The notes below the pieces were generated by a model, which did not search any database, had not been told where the DNA came from, and saw only the letters and a list, made by a program, of their open reading frames with translations. DNA of 64,000 bases. Origin: an uncultured Gammaproteobacteria bacterium. Its GTDB lineage: Bacteria > Patescibacteriota > Microgenomatia > Levybacterales > GWA1-39-11. Positions 13,077-41,031 of the stretch are shown in pieces. Within the stretch, counting starts at the first letter, position 1, and each line of letters starts with the position of its first letter. The stretch covers positions 17,549 to 81,548 of the forward strand of contig CAYOTA010000002.1 in NCBI GenBank assembly GCA_964406795.1, in the 5' to 3' direction. The position numbers and the translations under genes were made by a program.

Positions 13077-13090
13077 TACAAGTGAATTTT

Positions 13091-13199: not shown

Positions 13200-13240
13200 C
13201 TTAAAAAACGAAGTTTTTTAAGCACCGCGTTTTCGCTCGC

Positions 13241-13519: not shown

Positions 13520-13624
13520 GAGCAGTGTGCTGAATTTGAGCCTTGAATCCAAAGTTCACATATCAGTGTGGCAGTTTTGAGTTCACGAAAACCTGCCACT
13601 TAAATTTTACTTGGAAAATTTAAG

Positions 13625-13697
13625 TGCCAAGACCAGGACTCGAACCCGGATAACTTGTTCTTCAGACAAGCGCCTTGACCATCTTGGCTATCTTGGC
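13625..13697 (-). tRNA. tRNA-Phe (anticodon GAA)
   Basis: GCCAAGATAGCCAAGATGGTCAAGGCGCTTGTCTGAAGAACAAGTTATCCGGGTTCGAGTCCTGGTCTTGGCA. Confidence 0.85.
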
Positions 13698-13878
13698 GAA
13701 CGAGCAGAAATTATTTTCTGCGAGTGAAACAAGACATGAACGAAGTTCATATCTTGGCTTGAGTGAAACGAAAGCCAAGTCAAGTTCTGAAAGAACTTAT
13801 CTTGGCAACGCCAAACTTAACGTCTTGTTATTTTACCAAAAAATTACAAATTATTCAGCTTTTGTTGAATTGACGTAT

Positions 13879-14361
13879 CTATGCAGCTTGTTTGAGAGTT
13901 TTTGACCACCTTTGTTTCCACTTGTCTGTAATTTCCTTTGATGGAAGAACTATCAGTGGCTTCGGGCTTTTAAAATATTTACTTTGCACAGTTAATTCAT
14001 GAACTGCAAGCTGTAAATTACGAGGGTAATGATTTTCTTTTTGTTCCTCTGTGTATCCGGTTTGCATAAAAGTTTCCGTTTTTTCCCGTAAGTTTTTTAG
14101 AAGGGTCTCATTTATTTCATTTTGATTGTTTCTGTTAAAAAATAAAGCTATACGTCCTTGCTTATTGTGTTCTTGCTCTTGCTGTTTTAATACCCAGGTT
14201 GCCAAACAATAGGTAGCAAGCAGACCATCCCGTGTGGGGTCTGCCCCCAGAGATGTAGCTATTCTTTCTCCTTCTGGATGAAGCAAGTCTATAAGTTTGA
14301 TATATGCTCTATCTTCTTTGCTTAAGTTTTTAGGTAAAGGCATATGATCAGGGCTTCTCAT
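13879..14361 (-). CDS. Hypothetical protein (160 aa)
   Basis: ORF only. Confidence 0.45.
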   Translation of the reverse strand: MRSPDHMPLPKNLSKEDRAYIKLIDLLHPEGERIATSLGADPTRDGLLATYCLATWVLKQQEQEHNKQGRIALFFNRNNQNEINETLLKNLREKTETFMQTGYTEEQKENHYPRNLQLAVHELTVQSKYFKSPKPLIVLPSKEITDKWKQRWSKTLKQAA

Positions 14362-14392
14362 ATTTAAAGTATACCAAACTTAAAACGCTTAT

Positions 14393-15664
14393 CTATACTG
14401 TTCCTTCTTTCCAAGAGGACAGATATTTTTTCTGCCCTGGGGTGAGTGTGTCAAATGACACTCCCATAGCTTTAAGTTTTAGTGCTGCTACTTCTATATC
14501 TAGTTTTTTAGGTAACACGTGTACGCTGTTTGTTAACTTTCCTTTATTTTTTACAAAATATTCTGCAGCTAGTGCCTGATTTGCAAATGACATATCCATA
14601 ACTTCAGCAGGGTGGCCTTCTGCTGCTGCAAGATTTACCAGCCTACCTTCTCCCAATACATATAATTTGCGGCCATTTTTCATTACATACTCGTCTAAGG
14701 AGTCTCTCAGGCGTCTTTTAGATTTCTTTACTTTTTCAATTCCTGCCATATCTATTTCCACATCAAAATGTCCACTGTTTGCAATTATTGCCCCATCTCG
14801 CATTTGTTCTACATGCTCTACGGTTATTACATGTTTGTCACCAGTGGCTGAAACAAATACATCACCTATCTTTGCTGCGTCCTTCATTTTCATGACCCTG
14901 TACCCGTCCATAACGGCCTCTAAGGCACGTATAGGGTCAACCTCCGTTACGACTACGTTAGCACCCATTCCCTTGGCTCGAATGGCAATTCCTCTGGAAC
15001 ACCATCCGTATCCGCCTACTACAAAAGTTTTACCTGCCAGCAATATATTTGTAGCTCTAAGTATTCCATCAATGGTTGACTGCCCTGTTCCATACCTATT
15101 ATCAAATAAATGCTTTGTGTCAGAATCATTAACTGCAATAACCGGAAGTTTTAGCGCACCTTCTTTTTCCATAGCTTTTAGTCTGATAACACCAGTAGTT
15201 GTTTCCTCAGATGAACCCATAATTTCTTTGATCTGATCAGGTCTTTGCGTGTGCAGCAAATGAATTAAGTCTCCTCCGTCATCCATGGTGATGTGCGGGT
15301 GGTAATCAAGAACAGTATTTAAATGTTTGAAATATGTTTTGTTGTCCTCACCCTTTATAGCAAAGGTTGGAATGTCGTAGTCTAGGGCTAGGGACGCTGC
15401 CACTGAGTCCTGAGTAGAAAGAGGATTAGATGCATTTGCTACCACTTTTGCGCCTCCATCTTTTAATACTAATAATAAGTTTGCCGTTTCTGATGTTATA
15501 TGAAGGCAAGCGGCTATAGTTAACCCCTTTAAAGGTAATTCTTTCTTAAATCTATCCCCTATGCTTTTTAAAACCGGCATGGTTTGCCCTGACCATTCTA
15601 TTTTGAGCTTTCCTTCAGGTGCCAATTTTACATCTTTTACGTCCATTTGTATTGTGCTTTTCAT
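14393..15664 (-). CDS. ahcY: Adenosylhomocysteinase (S-adenosyl-L-homocysteine hydrolase)
   Basis: Global SahH similarity: NAD-binding [28 protein letters not shown], substrate-domain motifs (HLLHTQ..., TTTGV). Confidence 0.85.
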
Positions 15665-15672
15665 AGAATAAG

Positions 15673-16605
15673 TTACCAGTTTAACAGATGAGCATATGTT
15701 TTCAAGTACCTTTTTTTAAACTCTTCTACTGTGTATGTATGGTCTTGTCCACCGTAATTTTCCACCGCATATGCGCCTGCCACGCATCCCATTTGTCCGC
15801 TAATCTTTAAATCAAATCCTCGTGTTAGACCCGTTAGAAATCCTGCCCTCCATGCGTCACCGGCCCCAGTGGGGTCAAGTACCTTTTTTGCTTTGCATGG
15901 TTTTATTTTAATTTCTTCCCCATGATCATAAATAACCACTCCCTTGTCTCCCAGCGTTTTGACAACCACTTGATTCTTATTGTTTTCAGTCCAACTGGGA
16001 ACCATACTCTCCATAAGTTTGATTTCATAATCATTTCCTAATACATATGATGCGTGTGTTAGTCCTTTTTTTAAATCAGTTTTAGATGCTTGAGTTAAAA
16101 TAAATGCAGGGTCAAACATATAGTTTAATTTTTGATTTATGCACTGGTTAATAAAAGACATGGACCCGGTAGCACCACTTGGTCCTATAAATACTGTGTC
16201 TCCCTTTTTGGCGATAGTTGAAAGTTTTAGTGATGTGATTTTTTCAGAAGCACCGTAGAAATATCCCCAGATTTGATTGTGAGTTTTATCAGCCATAGCA
16301 AAGCCGGTGGAGGTAAAATTATCCTTGTCGATTTTTACGTACGAGGTATCAATTTTAAGCTTGTCAAAAGCTTTTTTATATTCTGCAAAATCTTTCCCTG
16401 CATAGGAAAATAATTTGTGCGCTGTTTTTAAAAGTCCTAGGGAATATGAAAGATTTCCTGCAGTACCTCCACGGCGTTTATCAAACTTATTTACAATAAA
16501 TGAAAGATTAATTTTGTGAAGCTGTTCGGGTAAAATGTGGTCTGCAAATGCGCCCGGAAAATCCATGATGTAATCAAACGCAATAGTTCCGGTAACTATA
16601 ATCAT
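15673..16605 (-). CDS. PfkB-family carbohydrate/nucleoside kinase, probably adenosine kinase
   Basis: C-terminal [14 protein letters not shown] (PfkB signature 2). In operon with ahcY (8-nt gap). Confidence 0.7.
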
Positions 16606-16647
16606 CTAGTAAAAATTCACTAAGTGTTAACACTTAGTGAAACGAAG

Positions 16648-26552: not shown

Positions 26553-26602
26553 GCACTTAGTCTACCATGATTACCTATGGCATAATAGCCTAAAACAATC
26601 AT

Positions 26603-26634
26603 AATCGTATGTTCGTACGATCATGCGATTGTTG
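26603..26634 (+). repeat. Direct repeat copy 1 (ATCATAATCGTATGTTCGTACGATCATGCGAT)
   Basis: About 80% identical to 26929-26960 (ATCATGATCGTATCATCGTACGATCATACGAT). The two copies bracket the 26674-26928 ORF. Confidence 0.6.
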
Positions 26635-26673
26635 TTTGTATATAAGTACAAATGCAAAAAGTGTGAGTGTTGG

Positions 26674-26928
26674 TTATTTTATTTTAAAGTTTCTTTTGCA
26701 GATAAGGATGAACAGAATTATGAGCGTCCATAGTTCTAGTGTAAGCTTGAATCCATCCTGCTCAGACCCTTCACGGCTTCCATAATATGACATTCTCCAG
26801 AAAATAAGACCTATAAGGATAAATGCTGGAATGATAGCCCATTTGGAGATTTCATCATGTCCCCAAGTACTATCTTTTATAAATCTTTTTACGTCTTTGC
26901 TTTTAAAAAGCTTCATGTGTCTAATCAT
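26674..26928 (-). CDS. Small two-TM membrane protein (84 aa), uncharacterised, flanked by direct repeats
   Basis: WAIIPAFILIGLIFW and LWTLIILFILICK hydrophobic helices. Confidence 0.4.
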   Translation of the reverse strand: MIRHMKLFKSKDVKRFIKDSTWGHDEISKWAIIPAFILIGLIFWRMSYYGSREGSEQDGFKLTLELWTLIILFILICKRNFKIK

Positions 26929-26966
26929 ATCATGATCGTATCATCGTACGATCATACGATCATACG
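26929..26966 (+). repeat. Direct repeat copy 2 plus ACGATCAT tandem (CGTACGATCATACGATCATACGATCG)
   Basis: See copy 1. Also carries 2.5 tandem 8-mers. Confidence 0.6.
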
Positions 26967-26984
26967 ATCGAAATACAGATGATT

Positions 26985-27045
26985 TGTTATTTGGGATTGT
27001 ATGGGGAGATTGGGTGGAGATGGGGATTGGGGGGGGTGGAGGCTA
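26985..27045 (+). repeat. G-tract-rich segment (GGGATTGTATGGGGAGATTGGGTGGAGATGGGGATTGGGGGGGGTGGAGG)
   Basis: At least five G3+ runs within 50 nt in an otherwise AT-rich intergenic region. Potential G-quadruplex former. Confidence 0.5.
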
Positions 27046-27128
27046 AATCAAAAAATAAATTTTGATTTAAAAACACTTGAGGCTAAAAAAATAGCAATTG
27101 AGGCTGGAATGTAGTGGAAACAAAGTCT

Positions 27129-29933
27129 TTACCACTCAAACACATCAATTATATTTTGTATAGTGTTTTTTATTCTATCAATAACTCCTTGTCTTTGAAG
27201 GAATTGGGGTTGCTTTTCTTGGGGAATGAGGTCAAACACATCCTGATCTTTCGGTAATTTTTGAGAATATAAATATTCACCTATAAGTTTTTCTAAGTCT
27301 TCCATTGGAATCTTTTCGTCATCAGCAAGTTTTTTCAACGAGTTTGATCTCTGACTGTTCCAGAACTCATGAAATGCTTTATCAACCTGACTTGATCTTT
27401 CAACGTTTGGAAGATTTTCTTCAATAAACTTTTTGATTAGCTCCTTCTTTTTCCTTAGCTGAACGTCTCTGTCAAAGATTTTTAGAATGTCCTCTGTTCT
27501 TTTCTTACGAAGATCATCGGATTTAATATTCTTAAGCCCTGCAATAAGTAAAATTATGTAATCATAATCAATGATGTCGCGAATCGTCAATTCAAGCTCA
27601 AAATCAATCTGGTCAAGTATTGATTCAGGCCCCATTCCGTGAGTTTTTCTTTCTTCATAAATATCAAGATATTTGCTTTGATAGTCGTAGAATTCTTGCT
27701 CTGAAATGCCCAGCTCTTGGAATGAAAAATCAGCAAATGTTTCAAGGCTTGCTTTAATTCTAAGTAAGTCCCTAAATGTTTTTACAAATTTTGCTTTTTT
27801 TTCTTCGCCTTGCAGTTCACTAACTGAATTAACTGTAGGCGTTTGAGTTCTTAACTCATGAAGCTTGTTCTCAAACTCCTTTTTTTGCTCATCATATGGC
27901 TTTTTAAATACTACCTCTTTAGCGTTTTCGTCGCCAAATAGAGTAAGCGCAGTGTCTGTTGCTTTTTTAAGATTTTGGAATGAAACAATATTTCCGTGAG
28001 GTTTGTCTGAATTAAGTAGTCTGTTTGTTCTAGAGTATGCCTGAATTAATCCGTGATACCTCAAATTTTTATCAACATATAAAGTGTTAAGACGTGGACT
28101 ATCAAATCCAGTTAAAAACATGTTGACTACAAGTACGAGATCCACCTGTTTATCTTTAATTCTCTTTTGCAGGTCTCTGTAGTAGTCATAAAATCGGTCA
28201 GTTGAGAAATTAGTTGAGTACAATGTATTGTAATCTCTTATGCAATTTTCTAAGAAATCTCTAGAATGTTGATTTACAGCTGCACCTTCTACACCAAAAA
28301 CATCTACATCCAGCATGTCACTACTTTCATCTTCGTTTGCTTGATAGGTGAAAATTGTGGCAATATTTAAAGTTTCTGGTTTTTTAGATTTAAAAAGTGA
28401 ATAGTATTTTTTTAATACATCTACGCTGGTTACAGCAAATAATGCGTTAAACTTTCCGTTTTTTGTTTTTCTTTTCCAGTCAGCTAATATGTAATCAGTT
28501 ATTTTAGAAAGTCTGTCATCACTTTCCAGCACTTCACGTGTATCAATCCCTTCCACCATTGCATCTGCAAAAATATCGGCATCCAGAGTATCTGCATCTT
28601 TTTGTGTATAGCGTCCTACGTACTCTACTGCAAATCCAAGCACATTATTATCAGATATAGCATTTGTGATAATGTATTTATGCAAACACTTCTCAAAAAC
28701 ATCTACGGTGGTTACTCCTCCTACGTTATTATCTGCAAAGATGGGAGTACCAGTAAACCCAAAAAGTTGAGCTTTTTTAAAAAAGCCTTTAATCCTTGCA
28801 TGAGTTTGGCCAAACTGGCTTCTATGACATTCGTCAAATATTATAACCACTCTCTCATCTGCTAAATTTGTAAATTGTGAGGTGTATGAATCTCTACTGA
28901 TTGCAATATCAAGTTTTTGAATAGTTGTTACAATGAGTTTTGTTTTTGAGTCTTTTAACTGGTTTACTAAATTGTTTGTGTTACTTGTTCCGTCAACTGA
29001 ACCATCAGAAAATGAATTAAATTCTTTTGTTGTCTGAATATCCAAATCCTTTCTATCCACAACAAATAATACTTTTTTAATTTCTGGCATGCGTTTCAGA
29101 ATTTGACTTGTTTTAAAAGATGTTAACGTTTTTCCACTTCCTGTTGTGTGCCATATGTAGCCGTTTTTGGTTGACTCTTTGACCTTTTCTTCGATTGCAC
29201 GTGCGGCATAGTACTGATATGGGCGCATAACCATAGGAATTTTAGGTACTTCGGCAAGTACTATGTACTCTGCAATCATTTCAGACACACTGCATTTTTC
29301 CAGGAATACTTCAGCAAATTCTGACAATTTAGTTACCTTTTTATTATCTATATCAGTCCAGTAAAACGTTTGTTCAAATGACTGAGTTGGATTATTAGAA
29401 AAGTATTTTGTGTTAACACCGTTACTTATTACAAAAATTTGTATGTATTCAAAGAGTGTATTTGTGAAAGAATGTCTGTGATATCTTTGGATTTGATTAA
29501 ATGCTTCTTTCATTTCCATGCCTCGTCTTTTAAGTTCTATTTGTACCAAAGGAAGCCCATTAATAAGTAGGGTTACGTCATATCTGTTTTGGTAACTTCC
29601 GGTTTGGGTTAATTGGTGAGTGACCTGATATTCATTTTTACACCACTGATCCATGTTAAAAAACCTGATCCATATTTCAGTTTCATCATCACGTTTTAAC
29701 ACAAATCTATCTCTTAAAGTTTTTGCTTTTAAGAATCTGTCCCCACGGTTTAAATGGTTTAGGATTCTTTCAAATTCAGCTTCTGAAAAATTAGCCTCAT
29801 TAAATCTTTCTAGTTGAGATTTTAAATTTGAGATGAGTGCATTTGTGTCAGGTAGGACCACAGGAGTAAATCCCAACTTTTGAAGCTGGACCATTAACTC
29901 ATTTTCAAGTTGTAATTCAGATTGTGTATTCAT
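27129..29933 (-). CDS. hsdR: Type I restriction enzyme R subunit (HsdR)
   Basis: HTTGSGKTLTSF (helicase motif I), FDECHRSQFG (motif II DEAH-like). N-terminal nuclease region. 934 aa. Confidence 0.9.
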   Translation of the reverse strand: MNTQSELQLENELMVQLQKLGFTPVVLPDTNALISNLKSQLERFNEANFSEAEFERILNHLNRGDRFLKAKTLRDRFVLKRDDETEIWIRFFNMDQWCKNEYQVTHQLTQTGSYQNRYDVTLLINGLPLVQIELKRRGMEMKEAFNQIQRYHRHSFTNTLFEYIQIFVISNGVNTKYFSNNPTQSFEQTFYWTDIDNKKVTKLSEFAEVFLEKCSVSEMIAEYIVLAEVPKIPMVMRPYQYYAARAIEEKVKESTKNGYIWHTTGSGKTLTSFKTSQILKRMPEIKKVLFVVDRKDLDIQTTKEFNSFSDGSVDGTSNTNNLVNQLKDSKTKLIVTTIQKLDIAISRDSYTSQFTNLADERVVIIFDECHRSQFGQTHARIKGFFKKAQLFGFTGTPIFADNNVGGVTTVDVFEKCLHKYIITNAISDNNVLGFAVEYVGRYTQKDADTLDADIFADAMVEGIDTREVLESDDRLSKITDYILADWKRKTKNGKFNALFAVTSVDVLKKYYSLFKSKKPETLNIATIFTYQANEDESSDMLDVDVFGVEGAAVNQHSRDFLENCIRDYNTLYSTNFSTDRFYDYYRDLQKRIKDKQVDLVLVVNMFLTGFDSPRLNTLYVDKNLRYHGLIQAYSRTNRLLNSDKPHGNIVSFQNLKKATDTALTLFGDENAKEVVFKKPYDEQKKEFENKLHELRTQTPTVNSVSELQGEEKKAKFVKTFRDLLRIKASLETFADFSFQELGISEQEFYDYQSKYLDIYEERKTHGMGPESILDQIDFELELTIRDIIDYDYIILLIAGLKNIKSDDLRKKRTEDILKIFDRDVQLRKKKELIKKFIEENLPNVERSSQVDKAFHEFWNSQRSNSLKKLADDEKIPMEDLEKLIGEYLYSQKLPKDQDVFDLIPQEKQPQFLQRQGVIDRIKNTIQNIIDVFEW

Positions 29934-29936
29934 TTT

Positions 29937-30461
29937 TTATCCATCTAATATTACTTTCTTTAATGGTTTTACTGCAGTTAGTATAGCAGAGGTCAGTCCT
30001 AATATAGCCCTTTCGTGGGCTACAATTCCGCCTATTTTTAAAATAAATCCATCCCCTTTAAGACGTCTTAATTCATCGGTGTTTGAATGATCTTCATGAG
30101 CCCCTTCCTGATCCGCGAACACTTTTATTAATTCTTTGTTAGTAAGGCTAACAGGTGAGGGTACATTGCTAGCGAAAGCTAGTTCATCTAATAACTCATT
30201 CAGTGATAATATGCTTTTCTTTCCTATTATTGGTGGTATATTTCTGTGAATAATCATTTCCATTCCATAATATTTAGTTAGGTGCTGTAAGAGCGGTTTA
30301 TTGGTTCGAGTTTCAATTATAAGAGCCCTTAGGTTAGAAGCAATATCTTTAATTCTGCTGTGTTTCCCTTTATGATAGTCTTGCAGATAATCATCTAAGT
30401 TGATGATTCTATCCAGAAACGCTTGTTCTAGTTCTTTTTGCTCTCTTGGTATTCTGTTCAT
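29937..30461 (-). CDS. Uncharacterised protein (174 aa) translationally coupled between hsdS and hsdR
   Basis: ATGA start/stop overlap with hsdS (GTATGAACAG). Only a 3-nt gap to the hsdR start. No recognisable motif. Confidence 0.55.
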   Translation of the reverse strand: MNRIPREQKELEQAFLDRIINLDDYLQDYHKGKHSRIKDIASNLRALIIETRTNKPLLQHLTKYYGMEMIIHRNIPPIIGKKSILSLNELLDELAFASNVPSPVSLTNKELIKVFADQEGAHEDHSNTDELRRLKGDGFILKIGGIVAHERAILGLTSAILTAVKPLKKVILDG

Positions 30462-31726
30462 ACAAACATCTGCTGGAGGAGGCCCTTCTTCCATTCATCT
30501 GCTTTTTTAATTTGAGTTTTTTTTACTTCAATTTGCTGATCAATGAGACTCAAAAATTCAGCGATTTTTTCTTGTTCCAGCAAACAAGGTACTGTGATTT
30601 TCAGTTTTAAAAAATCTTTCTTACTCAAAACTCTATTTCTTCCTGCTCCTCCTGGAGAAATAACTCCAAGTAAATATTTCATTCGAGCTGTTGGATATAC
30701 GAACCTAAAATACTTAGGCGTATATTTTTCTTTGTTGAATATATATGTAGGGAATCGATGAGAAACTAACCCGTCACCATCATCACGCGTGGCTATTGCC
30801 AGCGCACCCTCCCAAGCAAAGGTTATATTGACTATAAAATCATTTTCTTTCACTACGTAAAGTTTGTCCATTTCTATTTTATTTGGATCTGAATTCAGCT
30901 TCTGAAACGTACCCCTAAAGTGGCTTCGGATTCCAATAGCTTTATATGCTTCTCGGGGTTTGACTATCTCTCTAAGTTCGGGAATTAAGATTTCCTCCAG
31001 CATTACCTCAGTCCACTCAGGAAAGTTTTTACCATTGTCATTTTTAAATCTAACTACCTGAGATAATATTTTTTGCGCTATGCCTTTTTTATATTTTTCC
31101 AAATTCTTTCTCTGTGCTGACAAATTCTCTATCCAATCATCAACAGATGATAAAAACAAGGCAATTTTCTGCTGTTCTGCAGGAGATGGGAGCCCAATAC
31201 TCAAGCTATTTAGGGATTCCTGATTAATGTTAGTGTTTGCACTCGTAGAACTAAGTGAGACTAGTTTTTTTCTAAATTTTCTATCTGAAAAACAATATTT
31301 TTTAAAATTCAAGTCAAGTTTCTGTTTTTCATCCCTAAATCGTATAAGGAACCCGCTATAGACTGTATTTTCTAAATCAGTTAATAACAAAGAAGTTTCA
31401 CCAACTCCTTCTTTTTTGACTGAAGATCTAATAAATAGGACATCTCCTTTCTTCAAATTGTACAGCTCTAGTTCCTTCTGGTTAGCGTTAACCAAACTTA
31501 ATTTAAGGTTTGATATTGTAGGCTTTCCAAACACATCCATCAAATTAACAAATGGGAATCCAAAACCAAAGTTTTCTTTAGATTTATTAATCCCGTTTTT
31601 GAAGCTTCCAATGTTCTCTAATTTTGTCTCTTTCCATTCGCCATAAAACTCTGGGAAGCGGAGAGTGGGCTTGCACGCCGTAGCTTTAGCGTAGGTGGGG
31701 ATTTTGTTTGTTGCTGTTTGGTTCAT
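30458..31726 (-). CDS. hsdS: Type I restriction-modification specificity subunit (HsdS), two target-recognition domains
   Basis: Typical HsdS architecture: TRD1, central conserved QQKIALFLSSVDDWIENL, TRD2, C-terminal conserved QEKIAEFLSLIDQQIE. Confidence 0.85.
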   Translation of the reverse strand: MNQTATNKIPTYAKATACKPTLRFPEFYGEWKETKLENIGSFKNGINKSKENFGFGFPFVNLMDVFGKPTISNLKLSLVNANQKELELYNLKKGDVLFIRSSVKKEGVGETSLLLTDLENTVYSGFLIRFRDEKQKLDLNFKKYCFSDRKFRKKLVSLSSTSANTNINQESLNSLSIGLPSPAEQQKIALFLSSVDDWIENLSAQRKNLEKYKKGIAQKILSQVVRFKNDNGKNFPEWTEVMLEEILIPELREIVKPREAYKAIGIRSHFRGTFQKLNSDPNKIEMDKLYVVKENDFIVNITFAWEGALAIATRDDGDGLVSHRFPTYIFNKEKYTPKYFRFVYPTARMKYLLGVISPGGAGRNRVLSKKDFLKLKITVPCLLEQEKIAEFLSLIDQQIEVKKTQIKKADEWKKGLLQQMFV

Positions 31727-31731
31727 AATAT

Positions 31732-32580
31732 TTACTTCTTATCTACACTTGATAGTAGTTTTTTTTGTTCTTCTTCCTCTAATAATAATGATTTGAATTG
31801 TCTTTCAGCAGAATTTACAAGTAGATTGATTCTCTGATTCTGATTCTTCCCTTCACTAATAAAATGGGCGTTCAAATTTTCTAAATTTGCCAGAATTACT
31901 AATTGTTGCACGGTGGCATAATCTCTTTGATTTCTACCACTTTTTGAAGATTTTTTATTTGACACTCTCCAGTCAGCAGCCGTTTGTCCAAATACAATCA
32001 GGTTTAAAATGTCAGCCTCGTCTGTATATACAAATGTTTGTTGAGACTTGGTTAGCTGAAGAGCGGGAAGGAGTATGTTTTTTATTGAGTCTGTGTGCAG
32101 TCTATAATTTACTTTAGATAAGTATCTATGGGAGTCCCACTTAATAAAATTCTGCTCCTTCTCTTTAAGCCGTTGGAACTCTGTAATTATTAACAACTTG
32201 AATCCTGGGCTAAGCCAAGTACCAAATTCAAAAGCAATATCATGATGAGCATATGTTCCTCCGTAACGTCCCCTTCTTGCAGTTATACCTTTGGCATTGG
32301 TTTTTTCAATCCATTCTATGATTGACGGATTGAAGTTGTTTGCGCCTGCATTATTTTTAAAGTACACGAATTCGTGTACTTTAAAATCAGAGTTATTAAT
32401 TTGCTCCCAAAAGCCCAGAAAATCTATTGTATTTTTAGTTCTTAGCCAACTATGGAGTGCTCTGTCCGATCCAGCACTTTTAGCCATGTCAGTTAAGCAA
32501 ATGTAGTCTTCTCCGTTAACTTTAGTAACGTTTATTGTGCTGTCATTTATATTCATTGACAAATTATTTAGTTTTGTCAT
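31732..32580 (-). CDS. KilA-N domain protein inserted between hsdM and hsdS
   Basis: N-terminal ...NVTKVNGEDYICLTDMAKSAG... (KilA-N/APSES-type DNA-binding domain pattern). C-terminal coiled-coil. Confidence 0.6.
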   Translation of the reverse strand: MTKLNNLSMNINDSTINVTKVNGEDYICLTDMAKSAGSDRALHSWLRTKNTIDFLGFWEQINNSDFKVHEFVYFKNNAGANNFNPSIIEWIEKTNAKGITARRGRYGGTYAHHDIAFEFGTWLSPGFKLLIITEFQRLKEKEQNFIKWDSHRYLSKVNYRLHTDSIKNILLPALQLTKSQQTFVYTDEADILNLIVFGQTAADWRVSNKKSSKSGRNQRDYATVQQLVILANLENLNAHFISEGKNQNQRINLLVNSAERQFKSLLLEEEEQKKLLSSVDKK

Positions 32581-32583
32581 AGT

Positions 32584-34161
32584 TTAGAACGGCTTTTCAA
32601 TTTTTAGCTCATCACAAAATTTTGTAATGTTTTGTTGTATATCTTTTTCTTCCATTTGAAGTTCCTTTAGTTTTTTAGCAACAGTATTTATGTCTATTGG
32701 CTCTTCATCTTCAAAAGTATCTACGTATCTTGGAATATTAAGATTGAATTCGTTTTCTTTTATCTCAGCAAGTTGAGCCTTGTGGGAATACTTCTCAATT
32801 TCATTTCTATTTCTATAGGTTTCAAAAATTTTTTGTATGTTTTCATCATTTAATCTATTTTGATTCTTTCCTTTTTCAAACTCTTTTGAAGCATCAATGA
32901 ATAGAACATTCTCATCATCTCTTCTACATTTTTTAAAAATGAGAACTGTTGCAGGAATGGAAGTTCCATAAAAAAGATTGGAAGGAAGGCCTATAACTGC
33001 GTCCAGGTAATTTTGTTTTTCTATAATGTATTTTCTTATGTGTCCTTCAGCTCCACCTCTGAATAACGCACCATGTGGTAGTACTATTGCCATGGTTCCG
33101 TTATCTGACAAGTGATGCAACATGTGTGTTACAAATGCATAATCTGCCGCACTTTTTGGAGCCAGTCTTCCATACTGCGAAAATCTTTCATCACTTACAA
33201 GTGCTGGATCATTTTCTCCTTTCCATTCTGCAGAAAATGGAGGATTTGCTATAACTACCTCAGCTTTTAAGTCAGGAAACATATCATCAGTTAATGTGTC
33301 TCCTTGCATTATTTTGAAATGATCAAAATGAACTCCATGTAAAATCATATTCATGCGTCCTAAGTTATAGGTTGTGGGGTTTAGTTCTTGCCCATAATAG
33401 TCGGTAATTTCTGCATAGTCTTTAATTCTTAAAAGAAGCGATCCAGATCCGCATGCAGGATCATAAACTGAGCGGATTTTTTTCTTATCTATTGTTACAA
33501 TTTGTGCCATGAGTCTAGAAACTTGAGAAGGTGTATAAAATTCTCCACCCTTTTTACCTGCACCTGCTGCAAATTCTCCTATAAGATATTCATAAGCGTC
33601 CCCTAAAAGATCACTTTTATTATCATCTAGTTTGAAATCAATACCCTCTAAGTGTGAAAGAACTTCGACAATAATTTCATTTTTCTTATTTTCTCCAGAC
33701 CCCAGTTTATTTGAGGTTAGGTCAACGTCATCAAATAATCCAGTAAAATCGTCTTCACTAGCTGTTCCACGTGACGTACTCTCGATATTAGTTAAAACCT
33801 TTTTTAAATCTTCAAGAATAAAATTTGACTCACCCGAAATACCACTTTTGCCTTTTTTGACCAAATATGAGAAGAGTTCAGTGGGTTTTAGGAAGTATCC
33901 TAATTCATTAACACAAGCAGTTTCTATGTGTTTTAAATATTCTTTTCCTTCTTTAGTCTTCTCTTTGATTTGTTCAAACGTGATGTTATCTTTGTGGAGA
34001 AGTTTACTATCTATGTAATTTGTAAGTTTTTCGGAAAGGTATTTATAAAAGATAAAGCCAAGGATGTAATTCTTATACTCGTCAGCATTCATTCTGCCAC
34101 GCAAGACATTTGCTACTGCCCAGAGTTGCTTTTCCATTATCCTTTTTTGCTCTTCTGACAT
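32584..34161 (-). CDS. hsdM: Type I restriction-modification DNA methyltransferase subunit (HsdM), N6-adenine
   Basis: VIANPPFS (motif IV NPPF/Y), DPACGSGSLL (motif I). HsdM N-terminal domain. Confidence 0.9.
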   Translation of the reverse strand: MSEEQKRIMEKQLWAVANVLRGRMNADEYKNYILGFIFYKYLSEKLTNYIDSKLLHKDNITFEQIKEKTKEGKEYLKHIETACVNELGYFLKPTELFSYLVKKGKSGISGESNFILEDLKKVLTNIESTSRGTASEDDFTGLFDDVDLTSNKLGSGENKKNEIIVEVLSHLEGIDFKLDDNKSDLLGDAYEYLIGEFAAGAGKKGGEFYTPSQVSRLMAQIVTIDKKKIRSVYDPACGSGSLLLRIKDYAEITDYYGQELNPTTYNLGRMNMILHGVHFDHFKIMQGDTLTDDMFPDLKAEVVIANPPFSAEWKGENDPALVSDERFSQYGRLAPKSAADYAFVTHMLHHLSDNGTMAIVLPHGALFRGGAEGHIRKYIIEKQNYLDAVIGLPSNLFYGTSIPATVLIFKKCRRDDENVLFIDASKEFEKGKNQNRLNDENIQKIFETYRNRNEIEKYSHKAQLAEIKENEFNLNIPRYVDTFEDEEPIDINTVAKKLKELQMEEKDIQQNITKFCDELKIEKPF

Positions 34162-34224: not shown

Positions 34225-34599
34225 TTACTTCTTATCATTCAGCTTTTTCAAAAAATCATCTACATCTTTCACAAAAACTTCTCTGGGAATTGACCCATCA
34301 CCAGGTCCTACAGCACCACTTTCCTCCAGCTGTTCTAATAACCTGGCAGCACGGTTAAATCCAACTTGCAATCTTCTTTGTAGCATGGAAGAAGATGCCC
34401 TATCATATTGAGCAACTAGTTTTACCGCATCATCAAATAACTCATCCCTTCCTTCAAATCCTAAATGATTATGTTTTTTAATATAGCTAGAAGGAAGAGG
34501 GAAGGCTGAACAAAAGTCCTCTAACCTCTGGAGTCTAATCTTGGCGCTTACAAGTTCCGTCTTTATTTCTTCAAGTTCTTTTTTTATGTCCTCATCCAT
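34225..34599 (-). CDS. Stand-alone FtsK-gamma winged-helix domain protein with N-terminal coiled coil
   Basis: DDAVKLVAQYDRASSSMLQRRLQVGFNRAARLLEQLEESGAVGPGDGSIPREVFV matches the FtsK gamma signature (SxLQRRLRIGYNRAARLIE.ME..GIVGP..GSKPREVL). Confidence 0.7.
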   Translation of the reverse strand: MDEDIKKELEEIKTELVSAKIRLQRLEDFCSAFPLPSSYIKKHNHLGFEGRDELFDDAVKLVAQYDRASSSMLQRRLQVGFNRAARLLEQLEESGAVGPGDGSIPREVFVKDVDDFLKKLNDKK

Positions 34600-34652: not shown

Positions 34653-35033
34653 TTATCTTCTTCTGGGGATGTGGGAGTATCTAATACTTAACATTTTTCC
34701 ATCCTTCCATAGAATCCTTCTTTCAAGCGGTTTGTCTCCACTTGTAAGCGTCGCTAATAACTCTTCTGATTCTATAGTTTCAGGGTCTATTGTATTTCGC
34801 TCAAAAAGCACCGTTCCAGGTTTTAGTTTTACCCTGTGAACAGTGGTCGTAATATTATCCTCTGAACATCTTGCAGTTAATACAGATCTGGGATGAACAG
34901 CAGTCAAATCCTCTCGCATGATGTCCATATCCCCAGGGCGTGCCCGTCCTAATTCAGACCACCGCTTTGTATGAGGACTAAACATTTCTACTTTAGATAC
35001 CATAGGTATGTGAGTATGTATTATATCCACCAA
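34653..35033 (-). CDS. Small uncharacterised protein, member 1 of a tandem paralog array
   Basis: Shares the ...TIDPETIESEELL... core and ...SIRY C-terminal end with 35901-36314. Confidence 0.5.
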   Translation of the reverse strand: MVDIIHTHIPMVSKVEMFSPHTKRWSELGRARPGDMDIMREDLTAVHPRSVLTARCSEDNITTTVHRVKLKPGTVLFERNTIDPETIESEELLATLTSGDKPLERRILWKDGKMLSIRYSHIPRRR

Positions 35034-35072
35034 ATATGAAAGTAGAGTAATAAAGTGCTGACGCCAGAATAA

Positions 35073-35474
35073 TTACGGTTGAGGCATGCGGGATAAAAGA
35101 TCCACAGGACTCAATATGCATTTATCATTTACTGGTTGAGAAGACTGAATAATTGTTGCAAAGTGTAAACTGTCAGGTGTAACTTCTAATGCGCGTAATA
35201 TGTACATAGACTTGTCAGTACCTCTAAATGCAGGAACAATTTTTAAATTTCTTTCTACATCAACTCCGATAATTCCAAATCTTAACCATACCTGTCCTAA
35301 TTCACCCATATTATTACGTATGGCATTCAAAGTTCTCTTAAAACCTTCCACATTCGTTTCTTTATCTTTGTTTTTAGAATCGGTCATTCTCAACCGTTCA
35401 ATTCCGCAATTTTTCAAAATTTGCAATGCTGCGTTTTCCGGGGATATGTATCTGGGTTCTGTTTCTTGAGTCAT
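35073..35474 (-). CDS. Small uncharacterised protein, member 2 (most diverged) of the tandem array
   Basis: IGVDVERNLKIVPA segment aligns loosely with the array motif. Confidence 0.45.
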   Translation of the reverse strand: MTQETEPRYISPENAALQILKNCGIERLRMTDSKNKDKETNVEGFKRTLNAIRNNMGELGQVWLRFGIIGVDVERNLKIVPAFRGTDKSMYILRALEVTPDSLHFATIIQSSQPVNDKCILSPVDLLSRMPQP

Positions 35475-35530
35475 AAGCAGGCATTATATCATTTCCAAGG
35501 CAAAAGTGATAACTAGTCTATGTAAATGTT

Positions 35531-35872
35531 TTACTCTTGGGTTATGTTGTAGACCTTGGTAGGTCCGTAGGGTTCCGACTGTATAAGAATTGGGTGCTCA
35601 TCTCCTTTTTTAATATCCATCAGATGTTTTACTAAATGTAATTTTTCTATTATCAGTATTTCTGGTCTTTTTGGGTCCACAATTGTATTCACCCCAGGGG
35701 TAACAGCCACAGTTGCCTCACTCTCATCTGAACTACACTCTATTATGATAATATCTTTCCATCCACGGTTCCATGATTCATACCACACCCTGTCTCTTGG
35801 CAGTAAATAATTATCTCTTTTCAGAGTTACTGGATTGCTACCCGTGTCTAAGTGTTCTATTTTTGTTCCCAT
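35531..35872 (-). CDS. Small uncharacterised protein, member 3 of the tandem paralog array
   Basis: RDRVWYESWNRGWKDIIIIECSSDESEATVAV...TIVDPKRPEILII aligns with DTRVIFDFKKKEDDAIIVAHDGNSDLVHVA...FIDPQKIRPVAIL of member 4. Confidence 0.5.
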   Translation of the reverse strand: MGTKIEHLDTGSNPVTLKRDNYLLPRDRVWYESWNRGWKDIIIIECSSDESEATVAVTPGVNTIVDPKRPEILIIEKLHLVKHLMDIKKGDEHPILIQSEPYGPTKVYNITQE

Positions 35873-35900
35873 AGTAATAACGCTTTAAAATCTTTTATTA

Positions 35901-36314
35901 TTAGTGATTTATACGGATAGGAAGAATTGGGCCTTTGCGGTCAAGCCGTGCGTATTGAATGCAAGATTCGCGTCCCTTAATAACGCTAATGGGAAGCGTT
36001 CCGTGTTCGTCAGAAACAGATGAAAATCCCATATTATTTCCATGCAGTATTGCGACCGGTCTTATTTTTTGAGGATCAATAAATCTCACGTCACATCTTC
36101 CAGTATCAGGATCGAAATGTATGCTTGCAATATTATTAGCTTCTGTTCTTGCAACGTGCACTAGATCACTATTTCCGTCATGAGCTACAATAATTGCATC
36201 ATCTTCCTTTTTTTTAAAATCAAAAATAACACGCGTGTCATTTGGTTCAATTTCCATAGACTCTCCCCACTTGTGAAAAGTTTTTGAAGCTGACCCAATT
36301 TCAATTCTTGGCAT
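35901..36314 (-). CDS. Small uncharacterised protein, member 4 of the tandem paralog array
   Basis: See members 1 and 3. Confidence 0.5.
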   Translation of the reverse strand: MPRIEIGSASKTFHKWGESMEIEPNDTRVIFDFKKKEDDAIIVAHDGNSDLVHVARTEANNIASIHFDPDTGRCDVRFIDPQKIRPVAILHGNNMGFSSVSDEHGTLPISVIKGRESCIQYARLDRKGPILPIRINH

Positions 36315-36362
36315 AGAAGAAGCATTGTAGCACTAAAAGCGGTGAAGTCAAACTATAGGCAA

Positions 36363-38948
36363 TTATTGAACCAGTACGGGGGTGCCTACTGTAGCATTGT
36401 CTCTCACAGTAATATAACTGTATATTTCGTCAGCCGGGGCCATCCACAATTCATTTGTCCCCCCTACTCCATAGGTATTGCGTGCAAAAGTTGCTACGTT
36501 TAAGAGATTTGCTTCTCTACTACCATGTAAAAATGTGTTAAGCCAGAATTTATTTTGAGACGAGGAGTTTGCTGCCATCCAATTCATTCGTTGTTTTATA
36601 TTCTCAGGCGCCCAATCTATCTCACCATCGCGTCCTAACACTGTAGTTTCAGCATTTACAGCCGAAGCGGTTATTCCACTTGCTGTGAAAGTAGCAGCAT
36701 TTGGAGCTATGTTCATCATTCCTGAGCCTTGGGTTTCGTTAAACTTAACTTCACTTTCATTATTTGCCCTCATGGTGTTTATAAGTGGCGTATATCCTGC
36801 ATTAAAACAAGGAGCTGCAAAGGACAGTAATTTATACCCTGGTTTATTTGACGAATTCACTAAATCTTTTCCTACGTTATAGCCCAGATTTATAGTATTT
36901 ACACTTGGATTACTACAATCATGATCCCAGGCGTGATTGCCTATGGACCAGCCAGAATTAAGTTTTTGGACCAAATATGGTTTATCAATTATCCATGATT
37001 CGTTTCGAGTGGGAAACACTATGTCACCAATAAGGTAAAATGTTCCACGGAATCCTAGTGATTCCAGTACTGTGACTGATTCTTTAATGTAGACATTGTC
37101 ATCAAATCCTATAGACCATGCCCACTTTTTATTATCTTTTAGTGGCGCTTTTTGAACAGTGACTGATTCTGGGGACGTTGCATCTACTAAATGCAGTCTG
37201 GCGGAATTTGATGAAGTGGTAAACATAAGATTTCCAGTACTAGTGTCATACGTACTTGGGATTGCAGTTCCGTTAACACTTACTGTAGCTCCGCTCACAC
37301 TACCCACCTGTGCAATTAGCGTTAAGTTTGTATAGTAAATACCTCCTACTTGCGAGTATGAAATAGGAATATCTAGAGCCGTTGTTCCAGGAATGACTGT
37401 AGGAGTTGGAGTTATGCTAGGAGAAGGTGATGGTGTTGGGCTAGCAGATGGTATAGCACTAATAGATGGAGTTACGGCTGGTGTGCCGGTAGGCGTTGGG
37501 GTTACCTGGGACGTAGAATACGTAACTGTTAGTGTAGGTTTTTGGCCTGCGCCTGTAAAATCTGCCGACATGTAATTTGCACTGGAGTATGGATCAGAAT
37601 TATTGTCTTCCGTTAAGATCTGTATACTATTTCCAGAATTCCACGAAGGATTATTCACCAATTCTTGAATAATTGAGGAAATGTTTGGGGAGGTTATTTT
37701 AGTGCCCCAATTTCCCTGCGGCACGGCGTTCCATAGAACGTTTGCGCTGGTGAGACTGATTTGTTTGTTGGCAAATTCAGCCGCATTTGTAGGAGGTGTT
37801 GGGGATGAATTATTTTCTGCTGCAATTCTCACGTTTGCTGTGTTGGGAGAAAATCCTACGAGTTCATAGCTTAAGGTTGCTTGGGTTATAACGGCGTTTT
37901 GAGGAATTGTCATGTTTGTGTATAGAGTAAATGCGTTAACCGGCTGATTCATATCATTCCCTAATTTAATAGACTGAGCTGTGGGATTAAAAACAGTGTT
38001 TATAAGCGTACTGTCATGTTTTGGAGAGGCAACTGCTCTAGTAACTGTGGTTTGTGTACCTTGAATTACCGTGGGAGTTGGTGTTGGCGGCGTAGTAGTT
38101 ACTGTAGGAGAAGGCGTTACGGTTGGAGTAACTGGGGGAATAGGAGACGGGCTTGGTGCTAAGGTAGGAGTAGGTGTTGAAGTTGGCAGTGATGTTATTG
38201 TTGGAGTTGGACTTGGGGTGAGTGTTGGAGTTGGTATTGCTGTCGGTGTTGGAGAAGTTGTGGGAGATAAGGTAGGAGTTGGCGTCTGAGTAGGTAGCGA
38301 TGTTGGTGTTGGAGACGGTGTAGATGTGGGGGTTGCACTAGTTGTGTACGTTATGATTAATTTTGGTCTTTGGCTAGCGTTTTGAAAATTTGCTGAAAAG
38401 TAGTTACTATTCGCAAAAGTTTCGGAATTATTGTCACCTACAAATATTTGCATACTATTACCACTTTGCCAATCACTTCTATTTACTAATTCTTGTATGA
38501 CTGTAGATATATTAGGGGAGGTTATTATGTTTCCCCAACTACCATGTGGAACTGCATTCCATAGCACTTCTGATGTCGTAAGATTTCCTGCTTTAGTGTT
38601 GAATTGAGCAGCTGTGGTAGGAGCACTCGGTGTTGCAGTATTTTCTGCATTAATTTTTGTATTAATGATTCCTCCACCAGAGTTTGCAATTCCTAATTCC
38701 AGGATTGCGCTTGTTATGGTACCGTTTCTAGGAACTGAAATGTTTTTAAATAATTGAAACGTTTTTATGCTGACAGCCCCGCTTTTACCCAGTCCACTGG
38801 TATTTATGGTGCGGTTAAACGATGATCCGGTAAGAGTACTATCATCATTACCTATAGTAACAGTGCTGGAAACGGTTGCGGCTGCGGCATCAGAAGGAGA
38901 ATATAGGAGGAATGCGAGGAGAAAGAACGCAAAAAAAAATTTCTTCAT
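36363..38948 (-). CDS. Large secreted protein (861 aa): two tandem ~150-aa repeat domains separated by Pro/Thr-rich linkers, C-terminal NodB polysaccharide-deacetylase domain
   Basis: Repeats ...[50 protein letters not shown]... and ...[51 protein letters not shown].... PTPTxSPTPT linkers. C-terminal [11 protein letters not shown]...GNHAWDHD (NodB motifs). Confidence 0.7.
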
Positions 38949-39025: not shown

Positions 39026-39358
39026 TTACTGAGAGGATTTTGTAGGAGTCTTTTTCTTTGTAGCTTTTTTGACTGCTTTTACGACAGTCTTTTTGACTGG
39101 TGCTGATTGCTTTTTGGAAGTGCTAGGTTTAGCAGGAGTTGATTTAGTAGCTTTTTGGCCTAACTTTTCTACTTTGTTTTTAAGATTTATACTGAGTTCC
39201 GCTGCTTTATCAGCTGTTTTTTCTACTGCTTGTTTTACTTTTTTCTGATTTTTAGGGTCGGACAGGTATACTGCTGCAGCACCTAAGGCGGCCGCTGTTA
39301 TAGCGCTTCCAGCAACTGCTGCCTCAGAAAGTAAGCTCTTTTTGTTTTTCTTTGCCAT
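39026..39358 (-). CDS. Lys/Ala-rich small protein with one hydrophobic helix (histone-H1-like tail)
   Basis: AVAGSAITAAALGAAAVYL followed by a KK-rich tail. Confidence 0.45.
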   Translation of the reverse strand: MAKKNKKSLLSEAAVAGSAITAAALGAAAVYLSDPKNQKKVKQAVEKTADKAAELSINLKNKVEKLGQKATKSTPAKPSTSKKQSAPVKKTVVKAVKKATKKKTPTKSSQ

Positions 39359-39397: not shown

Positions 39398-39877
39398 TCA
39401 AATTATTGGAGCTCTCACAATAGAAATATTTTCAGCATATGTATCATTTGGAAATTTTAAAAGTGTTAAAGGGCCGTCATGTTGGGGTTCCAACTTAAAT
39501 TCATTTTCCATTTCCCATGCTATCGTTTTAGTTACTCTTTCAAGATGTTCTCTGACAACAGGTTTAATTTCAGATTGTGTATCTTCTTCTAGGATAAAAT
39601 GAGGACTCCGAGGTGAATACCTGACCCCTTCTTTAGTAATTGTTGGAATCTGAGGGGAAAAACCTGAGAATGAAATATCTAGTCCAGGCGTTTTCCATCG
39701 CAACAGATCTCGTTCCTCAGCATTTATAGATTCTATAACGCGCTCAAGAAAGCGTGGCCATTGTCGTGTCCAGTCAGTATTAGTATATTTTGCAAAATCA
39801 GAAACAAGTCTAACCGAAGCGCCAATCATTTTTGGCTTATCGTAGGTAACCAATTCAAACTCAATCTGTTTTGACAT
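39398..39877 (-). CDS. Hypothetical protein (159 aa)
   Basis: ORF only. Confidence 0.45.
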   Translation of the reverse strand: MSKQIEFELVTYDKPKMIGASVRLVSDFAKYTNTDWTRQWPRFLERVIESINAEERDLLRWKTPGLDISFSGFSPQIPTITKEGVRYSPRSPHFILEEDTQSEIKPVVREHLERVTKTIAWEMENEFKLEPQHDGPLTLLKFPNDTYAENISIVRAPII

Positions 39878-39918: not shown

Positions 39919-41031
39919 TTATACTATTTTCTCCCAGGGGAATTGGGATCTTCCAAAATGTCCGTATGCGGCTGTTTTTTTATAAATAGGGCGTCTTAAA
40001 TCTAAACCTTCTATAATTCCTTCAACTGAACAGTCCAAAAGTTCCTTCATATATTTTTCAATTTCCTTTTTATCTACTTTTTCAGTACCAAACGTTTCTA
40101 CCTCCTGCATTACAGGTTTTTTAGCACCTATAAAATAAGCCAAAGACACCTCTGCCCTATCAGCAAGTCCCGCCGCCACTATATTTTTTGCTAAATACCT
40201 TGCGGCATACGCACCACTTCTGTCTACCTTTGACGGATCTTTTCCGGAAAAAGCGCCTCCCCCTACTCTAGCATACCCGCCGTATGTGTCTACTACAATT
40301 TTTCGTCCAGTAACGCCTGTATCAGCTGCAGGGCCTGAAAAATGCCACACACCGGTACCATTTAATATGAAGTTTTCTATCTTAGGTTTTAGACTGTAGG
40401 TTTTAAACACAGGTGTTATCACATGCTTAAATAAATCCTTTTTTACACGTTCTATGTCTACACTTTTTTGATGAGGGGCTGCTATTACTATGTGGGTGAC
40501 TTCTTTAGGTTTTCCGTTTACATATGAAACAGTCACCTGGGATTTTCCATCTGGCTTTAAGTAACTTACTATTTTTCTCTCACGAACTTCATCTAATCTT
40601 TTGGTCAAACTATGGGAAAGTGCGATAGGAAGGGGCATAAATTCGGGGGTTTCATTACATGCAAATCCAAACATCATGCCCTGGTCCCCTGCTCCTTTTT
40701 TCTTGACACCCACTGCTATTTCAGGAGATTGTTGATGAACTAACACGGTAATGGGTGATTCATAGGTAAAATTTAATTCGGAATCAGTGTATCCCAGACG
40801 CTTTATTTCAGCCCTCGCTATTTTTTCAAAATTTACTTTTGCGCTACTATTAACTTCACCTGCTAGAGTTACATGATTAACTGTAACCAGTGTTTCAACT
40901 GCAACTTTACCATGAGGATCTTTTCTAAGCACAGCGTCCACAATTGCGTCACTTATTTGGTCACAAATTTTGTCAGGGTGACCGGCACAAACTGATTCCG
41001 AGGTAAAACTGTAGTTTTTGGTGTTAGTCAT
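39919..41031 (-). CDS. metK: S-adenosylmethionine synthetase
   Basis: FTSESVCAGHPDKICDQISDA (MetK N-terminal signature), GAGDQGMMFGFA, hexapeptide region. Confidence 0.9.
   Translation of the reverse strand: MTNTKNYSFTSESVCAGHPDKICDQISDAIVDAVLRKDPHGKVAVETLVTVNHVTLAGEVNSSAKVNFEKIARAEIKRLGYTDSELNFTYESPITVLVHQQSPEIAVGVKKKGAGDQGMMFGFACNETPEFMPLPIALSHSLTKRLDEVRERKIVSYLKPDGKSQVTVSYVNGKPKEVTHIVIAAPHQKSVDIERVKKDLFKHVITPVFKTYSLKPKIENFILNGTGVWHFSGPAADTGVTGRKIVVDTYGGYARVGGGAFSGKDPSKVDRSGAYAARYLAKNIVAAGLADRAEVSLAYFIGAKKPVMQEVETFGTEKVDKKEIEKYMKELLDCSVEGIIEGLDLRRPIYKKTAAYGHFGRSQFPWEKIV

Follow-up and report, generated by a model that had tools for sequence, protein, structure and literature searches.

Four small genes beside a type I restriction-modification block: evidence for two unrelated protein families in a fast-evolving segment of a probable Patescibacteria lineage

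Tandem arrays of immunity proteins of the SUKH and Imm families are reportedly found at polymorphic toxin and contact-dependent inhibition loci, and are said to have been described there by Zhang, Aravind and colleagues in 2012. The anti-restriction proteins ArdA, ArdB/KlcA and Ocr are, in turn, small proteins encoded near type I restriction-modification (R-M) systems. Here we analyzed a cluster of four small genes, termed M4, M3, M2 and M1 in their order along the minus strand, which occupies positions 34653-36314 of a 64,000-nt stretch of contig CAYOTA010000002.1 (the window). The cluster resembles an immunity-protein array in that several small, cytoplasmic, co-directional and highly diverged paralogues stand in a row within a variable segment, and it resembles the anti-restriction genes in lying near a type I R-M block. 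The first-pass annotation of the window had read the four open reading frames (ORFs) as one array of rapidly diverging paralogues with a common D-P core, and had likened them to immunity, anti-restriction and other conflict-system families. Our results point to a different description, of which we are fairly sure: two unrelated protein families, one of them with three old tandem paralogues, in a native and fast-evolving location where the R-M block is an incidental neighbor. For the favored account as a whole, which also includes a proposal on function, we estimate a probability of roughly 0.6.

Pairwise BLASTP among M1-M4 gave a best expectation value (E) of 0.04, no better than that of each protein against the unrelated FtsK-gamma protein encoded next to the cluster, and the four sequences by themselves therefore fail to demonstrate a four-way similarity. 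Profiles were built for the families of M3 (five sequences), M4 (two sequences) and M2 (seven sequences). In the hhalign comparison, the M3 and M4 families aligned with a score of 34.5 (P 2.3e-5) over 87 columns reaching both C-termini, and none of 200 column shuffles attained this score (mean 11.0, standard deviation 2.0, maximum 17.7). As a control with real sequences, the profile hidden Markov models (HMMs) were searched with hmmsearch against a set of 1491 ORFs from the window and from related loci. The top non-members found by the M3-family HMM were P0009, the homolog of M4 on the related contig L004, and M4 itself (E 0.0034 and 0.0074, respectively), with the next match at 0.82, and the M4-family HMM ranked the M3-like protein of locus L089 first (E 0.0032). 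By these profile comparisons, M3 and M4 are remote, ancient paralogues. The L004 genome, whose MetK is 78% identical to that of the window, has one orthologue of each, so that the duplication is older than the split between the two genomes. M1 aligned to the combined M3+M4 profile with P 3.2e-4 over residues 1-58, with none of 200 shuffles as high, and its global score was 22.4 compared to 3.7 ± 2.0 for the shuffles. When M1 was left out of the profile, hmmsearch still ranked it as the top non-member (E 0.01). M1 is probably the third and most diverged paralogue of this family.

The same comparison of the M2 family with the M3+M4 profile gave P 0.37, and 31 of 100 shuffles scored as high. AlphaFold2 yielded an all-beta model of ten strands for M3, with a predicted local distance difference test score (pLDDT) of 86.7 and a predicted template-modeling score (pTM) of 0.78, and an alpha/beta model with three helices for M2 (pLDDT 87.3, pTM 0.79); both models are confident although built from just 8 and 6 sequences, respectively. 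The lack of profile similarity and the different fold classes of the two models together lead us to assign M2 to a separate family. The claim of four diverged paralogues thus stands for M3 and M4 and, more weakly, for M1, whereas the HMM-HMM comparison proposed in the first-pass annotation refutes it for M2, and the predicted structures of M2 and M3 contradict the idea of a fold common to all four proteins.

Three further candidates for the all-beta family were rejected. The 117-aa protein of locus L087 carries the terminal motifs by eye, but its hhalign P was 0.12-0.18 and it was missed in the leave-one-out search, and the 84-aa protein of the same locus, also with terminal motifs by eye, reached P 0.008-0.04 over its C-terminal 28 residues only. 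The family of w159, a small gene downstream of metK, again has the terminal motifs by eye but shows a weak, non-significant resemblance (P 0.04-0.08). A regular-expression count of the terminal motifs was designed after the data had been seen, and is descriptive only.

Multiple alignments of the all-beta family, whose members are about 113-137 aa long, reveal an N-terminal M-x-x-K/N/S-I/V-E motif, a central hydrophobic strand ending in E-C-(S)-x-D-D and followed by a T-T-V-A-x-T-P-x-x-N hairpin, a G-E/D-S turn, and a C-terminal I/V-x-I/V-T/S-H motif, which reads IRINH in M4, LRISHI in P0009, IRYSHIPRRR in M1 and YNITQE in M3. These four recurring features map to strands 1, 4, 5 and 10 of the M3 model. 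None of the polar residues is invariant: the Cys is replaced by His in M4, and the C-terminal His by Gln in M3. Two blocks had been proposed as shared by M3 and M4 from the letters alone. The first, pairing RDRVWYES...ATVAV of M3 with DTRVIFDF...VHVA of M4, has the same register as the hhalign alignment. The second, pairing TIVDPKRPEILII with FIDPQKIRPVAIL, is out of register by about 14 residues and is not kept in the orthologues, P0009 having QFNNFSDVSQIAL and the M3-like proteins having TWESPFLPG or VWDNPYLPG at this place. Also out of register is the proposed D-P core, [F/T]-I-[V]-D-P-x-x-[I/P]-x-[I/L], which is missing from the orthologues P0009, P0010, P0011 and P0013; hhalign pairs TIVDPKRPE of M3 with IASIHFDPD of M4, and FIDPQKIRPVAI of M4 sits about 14 residues further on. 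The likeness drawn between the endings SIRY of M1 and CIQY of M4 is likewise out of register and not kept in orthologues, the true C-terminal match being SIRYSH with PIRINH. Finally, the M2 segment GVDVERNLKIVPA, once taken for a version of the common core, is conserved within the M2 family only.

The four ORFs are present as annotated and look like real genes. In a search of 1.84e9 representative proteins, M2 retrieved five relatives (P0004-P0008, 78-33% identity) and M4 retrieved one relative other than itself (P0009, 28% identity, E 7e-6), and the single-sequence searches with M3 and M1 returned self matches only. M3-like genes were found beside M2-like ones in the contigs encoding the relatives of M2 and M4. 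The homologs of M3 identified in this way are P0010, P0011, P0012 and P0013, in loci L086, L004, L087 and L089; P0010 is 33% identical to M3 (E 1e-16, in a small database), and a profile search of 5.8 billion clusters added nothing to the five members of the family. The comparison of M2 with its 78%-identical homolog gave a nonsynonymous divergence (dN) of 0.14 and a synonymous divergence (dS) of 0.72, and the dN/dS ratio of 0.20 indicates that M2 is under purifying selection. By codon usage, the annotated frame is the best of six for all four ORFs, with 0.14-0.26 bits per codon; the long genes of the window score 0.278 ± 0.056, and off-frame sequence scores -0.057 ± 0.054. On the basis of the homologs, the dN/dS ratio of M2, the best-frame codon usage and the confident models of M2 and M3, we conclude that M1-M4 are real genes, of which M1 is the least certain. 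The ORF of M1 spans 34653-35033 from an upstream TTG, but its start is most likely the ATG at 35003, giving a protein of 116 aa. Independent gene prediction on three short Logan contigs, all matching the window with 100% identity, also begins M1 at this ATG, and this start provides M1 with the N-terminus MVSKVE, which matches the N-terminal pattern of the all-beta family.

Searches of the known families returned no match to M1-M4 in Pfam, PHROGs or NCBIfam, none in PADLOC at E<=1, none in PDB by sequence profile, and none in GenBank phages or PLSDB plasmids by tblastn. A pattern scan based on four M2-family sequences found no relatives in GTDB species representatives, JGI metagenome contigs or IMG/VR, and a scan with the M4 alignment pattern found none in IMG/VR or JGI contigs. 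Neither PDB nor BFVD contained a significant fold match to the M3 model, and the M2 model had no fold match in PDB. The assignment of M3 as a LAMP, FHA, lectin or Pam3-plug protein, and of M2 as a MglB/roadblock protein, was considered and rejected, with template-modeling scores (TM-scores) of 0.15-0.41 and poor E-values. The four proteins have no signal peptides, transmembrane or hydrophobic segments, and their isoelectric points (pI) are 6.4 (M4), 5.6 (M3), 8.6 (M2) and 9.6 (M1). As far as these sequence and model searches reach, the M2 family and the M3/M4/M1 family are two previously undescribed families of small cytoplasmic proteins.

The genes of the two families occur together. An M2-like gene lies within ~2 kb of the M3-like gene at all five known M3-like loci, with the two as direct neighbors in the window, L086 and L089. 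Contig L004 has two tandem M2-like copies (within 8837-9674), which share 28% identity. At the DNA level, positions 35084-35494 of the window are 80.5% identical to positions 176-586 of L005 over 411 nt, the M2 gene alone being alignable and both flanks being different. This suggests that the M2 gene has undergone mosaic rearrangement or exchange between contexts.

The surroundings of the cluster were compared with those of its relatives. The backbone of the window, consisting of TspO and metK on one side and of ahpC, GDSL, zf_Tbcl_2, methyltransferase, DUF4112 and GTPase genes on the other, is the same in the relatives. In L004, a 319-kb contig, metK is followed by w159-like, w110-like and M3-like genes, Gmad2, Zincin_1, the two M2-like genes, a 68-aa gene, the M4-like gene for P0009, a 192-aa gene and Band_7, and then by GmrSD, an Mrr-type nuclease and a DUF5615/DUF433 pair (12623-16606) ahead of rhodanese, GDSL lipase and zf_Tbcl_2. 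Locus L087 contains an 84-aa gene, the M3-like gene, a 117-aa gene, the M2-like gene and a 115-aa gene, and leads straight into ahpC, rhodanese and zf_Tbcl_2 with no defense genes. The shorter gene orders are Zincin_1, Band_7, M2-like, M3-like and an EcoRI-type methylase in L086, M3-like then M2-like in L089, and Zincin_1, M2-like, a 75-aa gene and a 194-aa gene in L005. Proteins of the cluster are 24-38% identical between the window genome and its relatives, compared to 56-82% for the backbone proteins, which bears out the rapid divergence noted earlier. From these comparisons we conclude that the segment bounded by metK and ahpC/rhodanese evolves fast, its gene order, copy number and sequence changing far more quickly than those of the backbone, and that the cluster is native to it.

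The neighboring R-M block behaves differently. Its guanine-plus-cytosine (GC) content is 33-36%, compared to 37-42% in the flanks and 37-39% in the M1-M4 stretch. Because of this low GC content, its absence from L087 and the presence of GmrSD, Mrr and toxin-antitoxin genes at the same place in L004, the type I R-M block is probably a later inserted island, and its adjacency to the cluster incidental. Direct repeats were sought around the block as scars of insertion, and nothing convincing was found. The supposed link between the four genes and the R-M system is therefore not sustained: homologs of the cluster genes do adjoin defense genes in L004 and L086, but not in L087. Taken together, the gene orders show the metK-ahpC segment behaving as a defense-island hotspot, with insertions of different defense genes, from one genome to another, at the distal edge of the cluster.

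The MetK protein of the window is at most 63-64% identical to those of the GTDB species representatives, the best matches being Patescibacteria/Saccharibacteria metagenome-assembled genomes (MAGs) and one MAG labeled Gammaproteobacteria. No M-family gene was found in the loci of these representatives with the closest MetK. Both families were found only in a few metagenome contigs of one lineage, probably belonging to Patescibacteria. The genes are carried by the runs SRR13608702/705, SRR22388333/338, SRR14271341/359, ERZ27297427 and ERZ27275114.

The features of the locus are listed in Table 1. The four genes do not overlap, and they belong to a minus-strand run in the order metK, w159, w110, a gene for an 861-aa secreted protein, M4, M3, M2, M1, the FtsK-gamma gene, the type I R-M block and ahpC.

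Table 1. Positions of the four genes, two promoter-like sites and selected neighbors in the window
Feature	Position	Strand	Description
metK	39919-41031	-	in the co-directional run
Promoter-like site	36324-36351	-	TTGACT-16-TG-TACAAT, ends 9 nt before the M4 ATG
M4	35901-36314	-	137 aa; subfamily of the predicted all-beta 'MxxK[IV]E ... [IV]x[IV][TS]H' family
M3	35531-35872	-	113 aa; second subfamily of the all-beta family to which M4 is assigned
Promoter-like site	35483-35512	-	TTATCA-18-TG-TATAAT, ends 8 nt before the M2 ATG
M2	35073-35474	-	133 aa; separate predicted alpha/beta family, no paralogue of M4/M3/M1
M1	34653-35003	-	116 aa from the ATG at 35003; orphan, probable third, most diverged M3/M4 paralogue
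FtsK-gamma protein	34225-34599	-	124 aa; Pfam FtsK_gamma, E 2e-25; context only
Type I R-M block	27129-34161	-	hsdM, KilA-N/PDC-S22, hsdS, 185-aa protein, hsdR; Pfam and PADLOC matches

The two promoter-like sites are of the extended -10 type, and the number of such sites in the region is not above that of shuffled sequences. However, among the 66 window ORFs of at least 100 aa, strict -10-like hexamers (TATAAT, TACAAT, TAAAAT, TAGAAT and others) pile up 6-9 nt before the ATG, with 20 genes at 6-9 nt and 22 at 5-10 nt, or about a third of the genes. Shine-Dalgarno-like motifs are rare across the same ORFs. This distribution suggests that leaderless mRNAs are widespread in this genome, and M4 and M2 seem to fit this norm, with near-leaderless transcripts from promoters of their own and predicted starts near 36317 and 35476.

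Several observations concern the neighbors. The FtsK-gamma protein has no similarity to M1-M4; it is a stand-alone protein encoded directly upstream of hsdM and consists of a probable coiled-coil N-terminus and a winged-helix domain of the type binding FtsK-orienting polar sequences (KOPS), with no translocase motor, and its FtsK gamma domain is also present in several PHROGs of unknown function. Two extra genes lie within the R-M block. The KilA-N protein between hsdM and hsdS matches the PADLOC candidate PDC-S22 (E 3e-105), and a 185-aa protein between hsdS and hsdR has no family match. The hsdR-ahpC gap (26553-27128, 576 nt) is gene-free and contains a cluster of ATCGTACGATCAT-type repeats, recurring every 8 nt, at 26913-26982, with an inverted copy matching the same repeats at 26598-26629, 305 nt away; these repeats possibly represent an island boundary or a regulatory element. 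On the other side of the cluster, the 861-aa protein (36363-38948, minus strand) has a signal-peptide-like N-terminus, long linkers rich in Pro and Thr, and two ~170-aa domain copies, each ending ...NWG..ITSPNIS..IQELVN...KP.L.VTY, and its C-terminal region gives a weak polysaccharide-deacetylase match (E 2.6e-5). In L004, L086 and L087, no such protein is encoded beside the orthologues. Two small fast-evolving genes downstream of metK (39026-39358 and 39398-39877, both minus strand) are kept in L004 with 46% and 38% identity. The w110 product is very basic (pI 10.4), with one hydrophobic segment and a weak GvpT-like match.

We propose that the M1-M4 families may be non-enzymatic binding proteins rather than enzymes, since they are small and soluble, no catalytic-looking residue is invariant, and the all-beta family has no invariant polar residue. 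An M2-like protein might work with one or more all-beta partners of the M3/M4/M1 type, as every known M3-like gene lies so close to an M2-like one, and diversification of the paralogues could then shift binding specificity in an accessory role related to conflict or to interaction with a host. We offer this functional part tentatively, as a possibility that we hold with distinctly less confidence than the description of the families and their location.

Several points weigh against the account as a whole. The link of M1 to the family runs through its N-terminal half, the C-terminal half alone being not significant against the M3+M4 profile, and its HMM E-values of 0.01-0.07 are borderline. The profiles are very shallow, at 2-7 sequences each, and a single lineage of conserved synteny supplied all of them. 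The fold proposed as common to M4, M1 and M3 is extended to M4 and M1 by sequence similarity, and the lineage itself is assigned from a single protein, MetK, at 63-64% identity. For the same reason of shared synteny, the co-occurrence of M2-like and M3-like genes is not independent evidence for a pair.

Among the alternatives, the one that survives best is an ordinary housekeeping or structural role for these lineage-specific proteins, related for example to the reduced symbiotic lifestyle of Patescibacteria; they would evolve fast only through weak constraint and have no part in conflict. Their stable place between metK and ahpC, seen in three genomes, the native GC content, the purifying selection on M2 and the presence of other fast-evolving small genes (w159 and w110) in the segment all agree with such a role. 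Nevertheless, we consider it unlikely, if still a serious contender, since copy number and order differ in close relatives, with two M2-like genes in L004 and with three all-beta genes in the window compared to two in L004, and since an alignment between the window and L005 that is limited to the M2 gene looks accessory rather than core.

More doubtful is a new conflict module of two genes, M2-like and M3-like, specific to this lineage, which would resemble a toxin-antitoxin (TA) pair or a defense system and to which M4 and M1 would contribute spare or alternative partners. The constant proximity of the two genes, their adjacency in three loci, and their small size, fast evolution and variable copy number and order at a spot that accumulates defense genes would fit such a module, but all loci come from a single lineage whose synteny is conserved, and the linkage could reflect position alone. 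In addition, there is no TA match in PADLOC or Pfam and no nuclease, NTPase or effector-like motif or fold, and M3 and M2 do not overlap but are separated by 56 nt, with a promoter-like site of M2's own. We regard as improbable, too, the broader version in which an M2-like and an all-beta protein would constitute, at the defense-island hotspot, a lineage-restricted two-component module for toxin-antitoxin-like conflict, defense or episymbiont-host interaction, with folds lacking solved relatives and with the paralogues giving alternative specificities.

The original suggestion, that all four ORFs form one array of rapidly diverging immunity or anti-restriction paralogues tied to the type I R-M system, now appears very unlikely. 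It correctly captures the tandem, co-directional arrangement, small size and fast evolution of the genes, the relatedness of three of them, and the presence of defense genes beside the cluster in the window, L004 and L086. However, neither sequence nor fold class relates M2 to the others, the L087 cluster abuts ahpC with no defense genes between, and the R-M block differs in GC content and is not there in the relatives. Membership of an immunity, anti-restriction or defense family was not borne out by the searches of Pfam, PHROGs, PADLOC and NCBIfam, in which ArdA, KlcA, Ocr, Imm and SUKH were not matched, and pI values of 5.6-9.6 are unfit for a DNA mimic. No polymorphic-toxin gene is consistently adjacent either, the 861-aa secreted protein being absent from L004. 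Finally, that some or all of the ORFs, especially the orphan M1, are chance open frames is scarcely credible: M1 has no homolog and the lowest codon-usage score of the four (0.138 bits per codon), and by our own estimate about one open frame of ~120 codons would occur in 64 kb of DNA with this GC content, but its frame is still the best of six, compared to -0.057 ± 0.054 off-frame, M1 is remotely similar to the N-terminus of M3/M4 and fits the co-directional, non-overlapping spacing, and M2, M3 and M4 have homologs, with confident models for M2 and M3.

If the favored description holds, two uncatalogued families of small proteins with no match in PDB or BFVD, and with confident predicted folds for M2 and M3, would join the lineage-specific proteins of Patescibacteria, and the metK-ahpC segment of this lineage would be marked as a fast-evolving hotspot for the insertion of defense systems. 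For annotation, the locus is both of use and a caution, in that adjacency to an R-M system by itself implies no functional link. A long-standing question would be touched only if the M2-like/M3-like pair proves to be a conflict module.

Compared with the known systems, the cluster departs from immunity-protein arrays in that no toxin gene bearing a domain for secretion or trafficking consistently adjoins it and that Imm and SUKH are not matched; its M3 and M4 copies are old, with orthologues of their own in L004, rather than recently diversified cassettes, and M2 is unrelated to them. From the anti-restriction proteins ArdA, ArdB/KlcA and Ocr it differs in that M1-M4 show no sequence match to them and are not strongly acidic DNA mimics, the families are not on phages or plasmids, and the cluster in L087 has no R-M system. 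M3 is comparable to FHA-type and 10-11-stranded beta-sandwich proteins in its size of ~110-130 aa and its all-beta architecture of about ten strands, but its highest-TM match in PDB, the engineered FHA protein 6c4u, is not confident (TM 0.41, E 0.1, 10% identity), and no FHA signature residues were seen in the consensus of the all-beta family. M2 begins, like the Roadblock/LC7 proteins (MglB, Ragulator), with a helix, two strands, a long helix and strands, and this fold recurs among its weak PDB matches; at TM 0.15-0.2, root-mean-square deviations of 11-13 A and E 0.3-0.9 these give no real superposition, and the likeness is a lead only. With type II toxin-antitoxin systems the locus shares two small adjacent genes, M3-like and M2-like, co-occurring in a defense-rich variable region, although these genes lack the overlap and a recognizable toxin fold or DNA-binding antitoxin fold as well as the database matches already mentioned. 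In kind, the finding is a modest and already familiar one: small lineage-specific proteins that have expanded in tandem within a variable region.

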